DNA of 64,000 nucleotides, taken from positions 3,576-67,575 of the forward strand of contig CAYPCX010000011.1 of NCBI GenBank assembly GCA_964409365.1, in the 5' to 3' direction. Made by a program: the position numbers. Below are positions 42,001 through 45,000 of this stretch, piece by piece. Positions within the stretch are counted from its first letter, which is position 1; every line of letters begins with the position of its first letter. Source of the DNA: an uncultured Planctomycetia bacterium. GTDB taxonomy: Bacteria; Omnitrophota; Gorgyraeia; Tantalellales; Tantalellaceae.

Positions 42001-45000
42001 CGGCAATTCGGGCAGCGGGTAAGATCAACGTGTTGATGCCGAAAGGTATGTTTGTCAGCGGCGCGAACGATAGAAAGAGTGTAGGAACCTGTGAGTGGTA
42101 TGAAGCGCAGTTTCGGGAAGCGCTGTTGACGGATAATATAACTATTAGGGCTTATGGGGGGGATAGCCTGGAAGAGGCGTACAGGATGTACAGGGAAGAA
42201 GGAACAACGAATATCCTTTATGCTTCAAGAAAGGACCTTAAAGATTTTAAACAGGCAACAAGAGGGATCAGAAAAGAAGGCACGCCAGAAGCCAAGAAAA
42301 AGGCCGAGAAACGTGATGATTTTATCAGTCGTGTCAGGATCCGTGAGCTGTCGGAGAGGATCGTTAAAGGTAGGGCTTTTGTCGAGGGTCACGGACTTTC
42401 CCATACCCGGGAAGCCATAGCTGAAGGTCTCTTGCAGGCGGCCGTAGAGCCGGAGATGCTTCTGAATGTGCAGGAACATTCCATTTTGCAGGATATCATC
42501 AACGTCTTTGACCAGAACGGCATCAAAGGGGTTGCCAAGGAACAATACCTGTTGTGCGCTTTGATCTCTTTCGCGGAATACAAAGGGATAAGAAACGAAC
42601 TTCCTGAAGATATCAAGGATATGATAGCTGCAGGTAAGACACCGACGTTCGACCAGTTCCTTAAGTTGATACACAGGATCCTCTGGGACCACCCGGCGAA
42701 GCCCTTTGATCCGCAGAGCGAATTTGAGAAGAGACGCCAGACCCTGTGGGCCGCGTAATACGCGTTTCAAGCAACACCTTCCCAAAAGAAGGGCAGGCTC
42801 AAAAGCCTGCCCTTCTTTTTATACACCCGATGTATACACACCCGAAGTATATTAATTGTTGAAAGAAAATCACAGCTTTCCGTGTCTAATATGTAACCAA
42901 TTCACACACCCGATGTGTACACTTCGGGTGTATCGCTAAAAAAGGAGGTTAGTATGCCTTACAGAGAAGGGGTTTTAGCAGAAAATGGGTTGTACCATGT
43001 ATATACCAGAAGTATTGCGGGATTTGAGATATTTAACAACAGCAGAGATTATGAAAGGATAGTCAAAGCGATGGATTTTTATTCTACAGAAAGAATAGAC
43101 CATTGTTTTGCCATATTCGAAAAAGTGCAAGAAAATCAAGTTTTGAATACTACGACTAGAGAAAAACTGGTCGATATTATCGCATATTGTATTATGCCTA
43201 CGCATATTCATTTGATACTTAAGCAATTGAAAGAAAAAGGGATTTCAAGATTCATGCAGAGAATTTTAAATAGTTACAGCAAATACTTTAACATTAAACG
43301 AAAAAGAAAGGGACCTTTGTGGGAGGGGAGATTTAATGGTATTTTGGTGAAAGACGATGACCAATTTCTACATCTAACGAGATATCTTCACTTGAATCCT
43401 GTTACGGCATCCTTGGTAGAAAACCCTGAAGATTGGGAGTTTTCTTCCTATAGAGAGTATTTAGCTTTGATCAATCAGGACAAGAAGATATGTGAATTTT
43501 CAAATTATCTTAGCATGGATCCAGTGGATTATAGAAGATTTGTTAATGATAGAATTGATTATCAAAGAGAACTGGCTTTGATCAAACATTCAGTGCTGGA
43601 ATGATGTTCATTGTTTATACATCGGGTGTATTATACACCCGATGTATAAACAGGGTTGGCGAAAGGGGTGATTTGGGATATACTGATATTCTAAAATCTT
43701 TAAGGGAAGGGTATTAGTGGATAAAGATAGTTTGATCACAGAGACACCGGGGTTAAAAGAAGTATTGGGTAATATCGAAGCGGCTCGCGCTTACGTGGAG
43801 AAGAACGAAAGCGTCAAAATAGTCGTTGTCGTATCGGGCAGTGAGGCCGATACGGTCAATTTCAAGGACCGGCTGGATAAGGTCAAGTGCCGTATCTTCA
43901 ACAGGGACGGCAGTACCCTTGTCCTCTCCTTCCAGGAAAAAATAGGCAAGAAGACCAGGGAGGGCAACTTTCTCGGGACGCTTCTGGCATATCACTCGCT
44001 GAAAAAAGCGGCCCAGGAAGCCGGCATCAAATACCGGGACCTTGTCACGCTAGTGGGCATGGTATTCGGGCGCGGCGAGAGAATGTCGCCCATAACGCAG
44101 GCCAACCGCTGCAGTAAACCCAGTATACGGGTCACTCCGGCTAACGTCGAACTGAAAGGGAAGAGAATAGCTTTTACGGCCATAGAAGAGGCCCTTATGT
44201 ATTTTACCCCGGTCGCGAAGTATCTTGAAAGACGCGGGTTCAGGGGCATCCTTGATAAGTGGGGGGACGAGACGGAGATACCTTCGCGCGATCTTACGGA
44301 AGAGCCGGAAGACGCTGCTTCCATGAGAGAATACGACGTCATCAAGATCATATCGGTGCTTGAGATAACCGAAGAGCTCGCGAAACAGAAAGAGTGGGCC
44401 GTTTTTGACGACGATGACAACATGCTCGCACAGCTTTCCCGCGGCAGGAAGGATACCTTAATAGAACAGCTGAAACAGATGGGTATAAAACCACGCGAAG
44501 ACGGCAAATATTACGCCGGGGTGAGCCTTGGCCCCGTGGCAGTATCTTATGACGTCCTGGACATAGCTTCGGAAGTGTTCAGTGACGAGATCGTGAAGGA
44601 GGACATCTTTTTGGACTTCGATCCGTTCTTCCTGATGGCGCTGGCGATGAAGGACGCCTCAGCGTGGGACGCGGCGCTTGAGGTAAATGAAGGCATGAAG
44701 AAGCTCATCGGTATTATCCCGGATTTCTTCGAAAAGGTGCAAGAGATAAAGAACATATTCAGGAAAAAATACGGAAGAGAGCTTAACCTCAAGGTCCTTG
44801 ACCTGGGGGGCGACGTGTACTGGGCCGATATAGGACAGCACGGCGCCATGAGGGACAAGTTCCTTTCGTTCAACGACAAGGGCGCCCGGGGGATTACGGC
44901 AAGAAAGATCGCGGGTATAGACGGCGAGAGGGATGGCCGTGGTAACATAATAGTAAATTCTGAAATAAGCTCGAACGTTACCGTAAGCGATTCCGTAATA

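Follow-up and report, generated by a model that had tools for sequence, protein, structure and literature searches.

The subject of the present work is a transposase gene, tnpA, and the palindromic repeats flanking it in a 64,000-nt stretch of DNA of an uncultured bacterium (GenBank assembly GCA_964409365.1, contig CAYPCX010000011.1, positions 3,576 to 67,575 of the forward strand; GTDB lineage Omnitrophota, Tantalellaceae), referred to below as the window. Among described systems, TnpA-REP of Escherichia coli (RayT/YafM, PDB 4er8; PMC3333891, PMC3479197) is a tyrosine transposase associated with repetitive extragenic palindromes (REP), that is, a RAYT; its single-copy gene is bracketed by cognate palindromes, some of them inverted pairs (REP doublets, REPIN, or bacterial interspersed mosaic elements, BIME), and this arrangement is termed a REPtron. 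In Pseudomonas (RAYT Groups 2 and 3; PMC3116915, PMC5581495), inverted REP doublets stand beside a single-copy, vertically inherited and constrained RAYT, and tens to hundreds of REPINs are dispersed. IS200/IS605 elements (IS608, ISDra2, IS200; TnpA_Y1 subclass 1.1) are shorter than 1 kb and carry a Y1 transposase between subterminal hairpins. In the TnpA_Y1 scheme of Quentin et al. 2018 (PMC6006769), the motif Y...NP defines class 2, the RAYT side; subclass 2.1 (TIRYT, Bertels Group 1) was reported without REPs (PMC6006769, PMC3733652, PMC5581495), and REPs of atypical form, lacking GTAG, have been described for subclass 2.6 and class 3 (PMC6006769). Whether REPtrons move as units is a question left open in the RAYT literature.

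The element in the window belongs to a known kind. It is probably a self-contained, single-copy RAYT-type cassette of 833 bp that arrived as one piece, possibly at an early date, in the space separating a terminator and a promoter of the host, and that did not give rise to the fused and free phosphomannomutase (PMM) and phosphomannose isomerase (PMI) gene sets lying on its two sides (Table 1).

The open reading frame (ORF) of tnpA encodes 216 aa and is preceded, 5 nt from its ATG, by the Shine–Dalgarno (SD) sequence AGGAGG; an earlier note on this DNA, made from the sequence alone, had correctly described a HuH (histidine–hydrophobic residue–histidine) transposase of this length with the motif HIHLIL and its own SD. 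The protein carries PTHIHLIL (H84-I-H86) and RYLHLNP (Y144). Its sole Pfam match was Y1_Tnp (PF01797; 34.6 bits, cut-off 23), and its sole NCBIfam match was REP_Tyr_transpos (NF047646; 75.6 bits, 4.4 bits under the equivalog cut-off of 80). Search of the PDB sequences gave 4er8 as top match, H84-I-H86 being aligned with its HMH and Y144 with the Tyr of its YIYINP. In the AlphaFold model (pLDDT 88.8), Y144 lies within predicted helix 135–151; with this model, Foldseek returned 4er8_A as best match (E 4.5e-8, TM 0.68), followed by the IS608 and ISDra2 transposases (ca. 1e-4), and every top non-Thg1 match was a Y1 transposase. H84, H86 and Y144 were invariant in an alignment of 26 homologues, and the catalytic residues, which the earlier note had left to be checked, are intact. 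All traits that define the Y1 HUH superfamily (HuH, single Tyr on the C-terminal core helix, profile score, fold) were found. REP_Tyr_transpos matched 26 of the 26 aligned family members (best E-value 3.2e-21), the IS200 model NF033573 one of them (E 9e-4). Since the protein has the Y...NP signature (YLHLNP; Y[IVL]HLNP across the family), it is placed in class 2 of the scheme of Quentin et al.; sequence comparison and the predicted fold together support a Y1 HUH transposase of RAYT rather than IS200 type, the choice between these two clades having been raised in the earlier note.

TnpA-REP of E. coli was the best match both by sequence and by fold, and shares with the window protein HuH, the single Tyr in Y...NP and a conserved Trp (W123 here, W94 there). 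The two proteins differ in length (216 aa here vs 165 aa; ca. 17% identity), in an extra helical C-terminal tail of ca. 50 aa, in the residue before HuH (Thr, THIH, here; Asp there), and in E100 and H101, which read GTAG in E. coli (PMC6006769) and are not conserved here. With subclass 2.1/TIRYT, the protein has in common a Y[IV]HLNP-type motif, WE, Ser-Ser after the core, a length above 200 aa, low copy number and patchy taxonomy; unlike that subclass, it showed no C-terminal helix-turn-helix (HTH) or DnaA_C-like domain in Pfam (Bac_DnaA_C, HTH_23, HTH_28), and its flanks are ACACCCGA-type hairpin palindromes, not GGGG[AT][CG]A[CG] terminal inverted repeats. Compared by motifs, the set THIH / WE / Y[IL]HLNP with an SSY tail in 216 aa is close to subclasses 2.1 and 2.2 without a clean fit to either. 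Of the IS200/IS605 traits, a length below 1 kb, subterminal hairpins, evidence for whole-element mobility (empty sites in relatives, homology limited to the cassette; see below) and neighbouring signals undamaged by insertion were found; Y...Q, the IS200 profile and near-identical copies were not. The gene is single-copy, second copies of the family in one genome or locus show 30–55% identity among themselves or with the query, and end hairpins are often inverted or full palindromes; persistence by vertical descent under purifying selection is a further difference from IS200/IS605. Low copy number, divergent paralogues and vertical persistence in syntenic pairs, all of them traits of RAYTs, were found.

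Six zero-mismatch copies of the unit ACACCCGAWGTRTA, and not five as counted in the earlier note, were found, all flanking tnpA (shuffled sequences: mean 0.06, max 1); three plus-strand copies and one minus-strand copy stand upstream, and one of each downstream. The outer upstream copies u1 and u2 are a direct pair with a period of 15 nt; u3 and u4 make up a 26-nt near-palindrome (13 + 13 nt, one mismatch) that ends 22 nt before the ATG; u5 and u6 lie in a perfect palindrome (20 + 1 + 20 = 41 bp) that starts 7 nt past the stop codon, and for these two palindromes the earlier description was accurate. By predicted folding of single-stranded DNA (ssDNA), the inner upstream hairpin has −9.2 kcal/mol (z −4.1), the downstream palindrome −19.9 kcal/mol (z −9.7), and the outer direct units are weak (−2.4 kcal/mol). 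Unit u1 is itself a mini-hairpin, TATACA-CCCGA-TGTATA, which was considered as the sole structural unit, being plausible by analogy with TTCCAA-ACCCGCA-TTGGAA of the clade nearest to the window protein; it folds weakly alone, and the paired hairpins were therefore kept as primary structures. No GT[AG]G foot was present at any of the three repeat structures on either strand, in agreement with the lack of conservation of the GTAG-reading residues. Rfam search gave nothing above any gathering score. A gene flanked on both sides by cognate palindromic repeats is REPtron-like in arrangement.

Homologues were collected by a word-indexed search (more than 2,000 matches, the best 120 of which were 51–63% identical and mostly from Omnitrophota) and by an exhaustive search (218 representative clusters at E ≤ 1e-30), and 80 family loci (L004–L083) were taken from GTDB species representatives; L-numbers are labels of fetched comparison loci, L004 being the closest homologue of the window protein. 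The hosts of the 80 loci were mostly Omnitrophota, and also Elusimicrobiota, Berkelbacteria, Saccharibacteria, WOR-3, Scalindua and Thermodesulfovibrionales. At 60 of 74 family loci, both flanks contained one and the same exact repeat of 12 nt or more (median 19 nt), compared with 4 of 329 control placements, which bears out the earlier statement that the gene is flanked by cognate repeats. The repeats of the family are hairpin palindromes whose sequence varies by locus and is grouped in themes (TTCCAA-ACCCGCA-TTGGAA; ..CCT-CGT-AGG..; CCACCCCGGGGTGG). Hairpin sequence tracks protein clade; most of the twelve relatives closest to L004, among which the window ranks 9th, are loci with (A)CCCGCA-type loops, and the unit of the window, with loop CCCGA, looks like a short-loop variant of this type. 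As judged from sequences, this tracking suggests that protein and hairpin have co-evolved as cognate partners. Across the family, the two flanks carry matching hairpins, which are cognate ends of the transposase even where they are not dispersed; the condition set in the earlier note, by which a unit absent elsewhere in the genome would be just a local terminator pair, is for this reason too strict. It may be asked whether the palindromes are transcriptional or mRNA elements of tnpA only (a hairpin in the 5'-untranslated region and a terminator) and not DNA substrates: the inner hairpin stands between the putative promoter and the SD, the second palindrome closely follows the stop codon, and both fold strongly as RNA. 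This is scarcely credible in view of the hairpins of one locus sharing their sequence while loci differ, of the tracking of protein clade, of the copies dispersed in some genomes and of the cassette homology between L004 and L006 that ends at the hairpins; the downstream palindrome is, moreover, without a T-run, and RNA and DNA roles are not mutually exclusive.

As the earlier note had observed, there are no other copies of ACACCCGAWGTRTA in the window at 0–1 mismatch, and with up to 3 mismatches allowed the number of matches was near chance. None was found in the 8.2 kb past the right end of the window either, so that ca. 72 kb outside the cassette (63 kb of the window and 8.2 kb) contained no copy, even with a 9–11-nt core. 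Among the family loci, REP-like copies were found dispersed over the 10 kb to each side in L005 (ca. every 2 kb), L013, L064, L048 and L037, and most of the 80 loci had none at this distance; for the clade nearest to the window protein, four stemmed ACCCGCA hairpins were counted in 1.03 Mb outside gene flanks (all GTDB loci). These data bear on the possibility of a canonical REP-RAYT system, in which a domesticated single-copy RAYT disseminates a REP/REPIN family through the intergenic space of the genome. The RAYT-like protein, the REPtron-like arrangement, the dispersal at the five loci just named and the vertical persistence of syntenic pairs under purifying selection speak for it, and the window leaves little intergenic space, three giant genes filling 42 kb. 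It is nonetheless unlikely, given the ca. 72 kb without a copy beyond the cassette, the near absence of dispersal in the nearest clade and at most loci, the missing GT[AG]G foot and the unconserved E100 and H101; dispersal of the Pseudomonas kind, known from Gammaproteobacteria, was not seen over these ca. 72 kb of an Omnitrophota-like genome. In L005 (2105–10714, Ca. Makaraimicrobium), TTCCACTCCGGGAGTGGCCACTCCCGGAGTGGAA recurs in intergenic regions ca. every 2 kb, and L013, L064 and L048 are similar; the recurrence in these four loci is true REP-like proliferation outside Proteobacteria.

The boundaries of the cassette were set by relatives without it. In the window it sits exactly between two host signals: the terminator of the gene for a 3,246-aa protein adjoins its left end, and the −35 element TTGGCG of the next promoter starts three bases past the last palindrome. 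With the 833 bp removed, the spacer is 125 bp. Homologues (57–60% identical) of the following gene, which encodes 559 aa, were traced to four related genomes (L195, L197, L199, L201), where the order large gene, 55x-aa gene, PMM(-PMI), permeases, GH113 is kept and no transposase is present; the large upstream gene contains phosphoglucomutase (PGM)/PMM in L199 and L201. The comparison with genomes lacking the insertion, proposed in the earlier note, thus gave conserved synteny without the gene. The intergenic spacers of these relatives (135–368 bp) hold a terminator hairpin with a T-run, then a conserved promoter-like motif, at a terminator–promoter distance of 8–12 nt in L199 and L201; cTTGGCAAA...ATATACT stands upstream of the orthologous 55x-aa gene in L195, L197 and L199, and a variant of it in L201. 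Within the source population, the exact tnpA protein was found at the same place in every assembly carrying an exact match, five loci retrieved from those assemblies were identical over the covered part of 1,060 bp, and all contigs obtained via the identical 559-aa neighbour in a search for a strain-level empty site carried the cassette. The gene occupies a single assembled place within a 302-kb contig, metagenome-assembled genomes being able to hide collapsed copies; the cassette is single-copy and fixed in the sampled population.

The fused and the free gene sets were compared within the window. The PMM module of the 3,246-aa protein (residues 1683–2320) shares 36% identity with the free 558-aa PMM ORF (E 1.6e-102), and weak colinear similarity was found to the 559-aa protein (residues 1090–1486) and to a PMI-like 396-aa protein (residues 2486–2663). 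The contrast of fused and free sets drawn in the earlier note stands to this extent. For the 559-aa protein, Pfam and PDB sequence searches supported neither a nucleotidyl-transferase nor a 'GDP-mannose' assignment. Fused and free modules are 19–36% identical, so the duplication is old. The earlier note had gone further and proposed that the element marks, and may have mediated, the rearrangement or duplication boundary between the two sets. It does lie physically between them, and at a further locus, L019, a family member likewise separates a free PMM-PMI gene from a giant gene that contains a PMM-PMI module. That the element created or marks this boundary is nevertheless highly improbable: in L199 and L201, PGM/PMM-containing large genes adjoin the free set without a transposase and with terminator and promoter intact, L195 and L197 likewise have no transposase at the junction, the divergence of the window modules makes the duplication ancient, and the cassette ends in non-coding spacer, not at the ends of a duplicated segment. 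Since relatives have the junction without the element, which itself stands in a non-coding spacer, the arrangement was not brought about by it. In this conserved spacer the transposase is a passenger and not the architect of the giant-gene/mannose-gene arrangement, and models of giant-gene growth in Omnitrophota should not invoke it.

Table 1: Coordinates of the tnpA cassette, its parts and the adjoining host signals in the window.
Feature	Position	Strand	Basis
Whole cassette, hairpins-tnpA-hairpins, 833 bp	42820..43652	+	bounds from relatives without cassette, each good to ca. 4 nt
Host rho-independent terminator of the 3,246-aa gene	42784..42819	+	16-bp stem, RNA −27.9 kcal/mol, z −8.3
Outer units u1 (42823-36) and u2 (42838-51), direct	42823..42851	+	pattern match, fold
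Possible tnpA promoter, TTGAAAG + GTGTCTAATAT	42859..42892	+	family motif enrichment; low confidence
Inner upstream hairpin, u3 (+, 42906-19) / u4 (−, 42918-31)	42906..42931	both	ssDNA fold
SD AGGAGG	42943..42948	+	sequence
tnpA, ATG to stop; 216 aa, predicted class-2 Y1 HUH (RAYT-type), H84/H86/Y144	42954..43604	+	profile, structure, alignment
Downstream perfect palindrome, u5 (−, 43616-29) / u6 (+, 43635-48)	43612..43652	both	ssDNA fold
Host promoter-like TTGGCG-N17-TATACT of the downstream mannan/mannose operon	43656..43684	+	motif shared with relatives

Movement of the cassette as a unit is indicated by L004 and L006, two loci of different species that are 92% identical in nucleotides over 727 bp only (gene and hairpins); their flanks are unrelated, and homology stops at the hairpins or just beyond. 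In L004 (3340–3420), the loop of the upstream TTCCAA-ACCCGCA-TTGGAA hairpin is broken by a 19-nt GC-rich mini-hairpin, cccgccagaggcgggcagg, which is absent from the L006 cassette. The pairs L008/L021 and window/L019 each have common neighbours, with the cassette in opposite orientation; from the sequences, this looks like inversion in place, plausibly via the inverted flanking hairpins.

It was considered whether the cassette had been resident at the giant-gene end in the ancestor of the clade, was flipped via its inverted repeats in one lineage and was precisely excised elsewhere. The L019 family member directly after a giant gene, the inverted cassette of L008/L021 between the same neighbours and the transposase identity between window and L019 (52%), similar to that of the neighbours (52–61%), would fit such a history, as would the precise excision known of Y1 transposases (IS608). 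It has, however, a rather small probability, because neither the window transposase nor that of L019 has the other as its closest relative (rank 20th and 9th of 80), their hairpins are of different classes, and three or more separate losses would have to be assumed on a tree of weak resolution; L019 is, in addition, without the 559-aa gene, so the two junctions are not the same. Independent insertion in the window and in L019 is favoured, and both the insertion and the ancient-resident readings require whole-cassette mobility. At L019 (6765–17264), the family member directly follows the stop codon of the giant gene; the PMM-PMI module of that gene shows 55% identity to the free PMM-PMI, vs 33–38% for the giant module of the window.

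Several observations weigh against insertion of a RAYT-type cassette as a unit. In the syntenic pairs L061/L070, L010/L020 and L037/L041, the gene is kept at one site and transposase identity is about that of the neighbours, which indicates, on sequence grounds, long vertical persistence; the element may be old and now immobile. The flanking repeats are inverted, not direct, at 23 of 78 loci, a misfit to a simple same-strand model of IS608 type. The PMM-PMI tree of six genomes is star-like (bootstrap 15–32%) and does not polarise gain vs loss; the position of the L019 member directly after a giant gene, in opposite orientation, belongs here too, as do the NCBIfam score slightly under its curated cut-off and the check for dispersed copies in the source genome, which covered ca. 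72 kb only. Binding and cleavage by the family are proposed by analogy.

By this analogy with TnpA-REP of E. coli and IS608 TnpA, insertion of the RAYT-type cassette as a unit could have proceeded as follows. Six copies of the cognate 14–16-nt unit would build the upstream hairpin, the 41-bp downstream hairpin and the outer direct pair; with the DNA single-stranded, the transposase would bind its hairpins, and cleavage beside them, by Tyr144 and the metal bound by HuH, would form a 5'-phosphotyrosine link; rejoining of the ends would then precisely excise or integrate the hairpin–gene–hairpin unit. The cassette would have entered the intergenic spacer in this form, neither terminator nor promoter being damaged; its precise excision from the relatives would be a less likely alternative.

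Selection and composition were compared across the family. Values of dN/dS were 0.10–0.22 in five homologue pairs, which, as an estimate from sequences, shows the family to be under purifying selection. The GC content of the gene is 24–41% whatever the host (hosts 25–65% GC; mean −8.6 points vs host, r = 0.77 with host GC), and tnpA is AT-richer than the host locus in almost every one of the 73 loci compared, with an extreme of −25 points in L051 (host 65% GC). This AT-richness suggests recurrent horizontal transfer or a compositional constraint. The GC of the window cassette (34.8% vs ca. 51% in the flanks) was considered as a mark of recent acquisition and was rejected as such: low GC is a family-wide trait, the −17 points of the window are typical for hosts of ca. 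51% GC, and cassette GC therefore does not date the insertion. No family member was found in IMG/VR viral contigs, so phage carriage is not supported; plasmid records gave distant relatives only (26–36% identity, annotated 'transposase').

Tentatively, and with a good deal of doubt, the proteins of 216–220 aa (218 clusters at E ≤ 1e-30; THIH / WE / Y[IL]HLNP with SSY tail) may form an unclassified, Omnitrophota-centred RAYT-type subclass whose whole cassette still moves, inserts cleanly into terminator–promoter spacers, flips via inverted ends, spreads between phyla while AT-rich and then persists in single copy under purifying selection. If so, the subclass would represent a still living stage between IS200-type insertion sequences and domesticated RAYTs, possibly one that prefers sites just after giant-gene terminators. 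At the level of the family, RAYT-type Y1 transposases with cognate hairpins are extended to Omnitrophota, Elusimicrobiota, the candidate phyla radiation and other poorly studied phyla, and natural filled/empty-site pairs together with inverted-cassette pairs could help to settle whether REPtrons move as units.

A tnpA promoter is proposed with low confidence: TTGAAAG (42859–65) and GTGTCTAATAT (42882–92) are candidate elements. Upstream TTGAAAG was present at 14 of 79 family loci vs 1.4% of controls, and a GTCT(T/A)ATAT-like motif at 9 of 79, the position relative to the ATG varying for both; the two may serve as promoter, as RBS-like element or as binding site. The spacing of the two motifs in the window is 16 nt, non-canonical for sigma-70, and a sigma-70 promoter is for this reason not established.

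The 16-mer ATACACCCGATGTATA gave at least 111 single chance-level matches across metagenomes, the source contig not being among the matches listed; the multi-match loci listed were L131 (2870–4461) and L173 (5006–6591) only, where it lies, without a transposase, in a coding tandem repeat of an unrelated metagenomic protein at spacings of 264 and 792 nt. These copies are put down to chance resemblance (coding repeat in multiples of 264 nt) and not to a REP.

The motif cTTGGC(A/G)AAA-N17-(T/A)ATACT stands before the 55x-aa gene in the window and in L195, L197 and L199, genomes only ca. 60% identical at the protein level. The 559-aa protein (43717–45396) gave no Pfam or PDB sequence match, and the 55x-aa gene is always 5' of PMM in the four relatives; it is conserved, with no function assigned by sequence, in a mannan-utilisation locus that contains further downstream GH113, a CBM27-like protein, ABC permeases and a ROK kinase. 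Past the right end of the window, L205 (10457–18685) carries smpB, the tmRNA gene (L205 10705–11089) and trkH, then a gene resembling sigma-70, some twelve very small ORFs and, up to the end of the contig, a PDDEXK/Cas4-like nuclease; this end region is island-like or prophage-like, and two of the assemblies break there.

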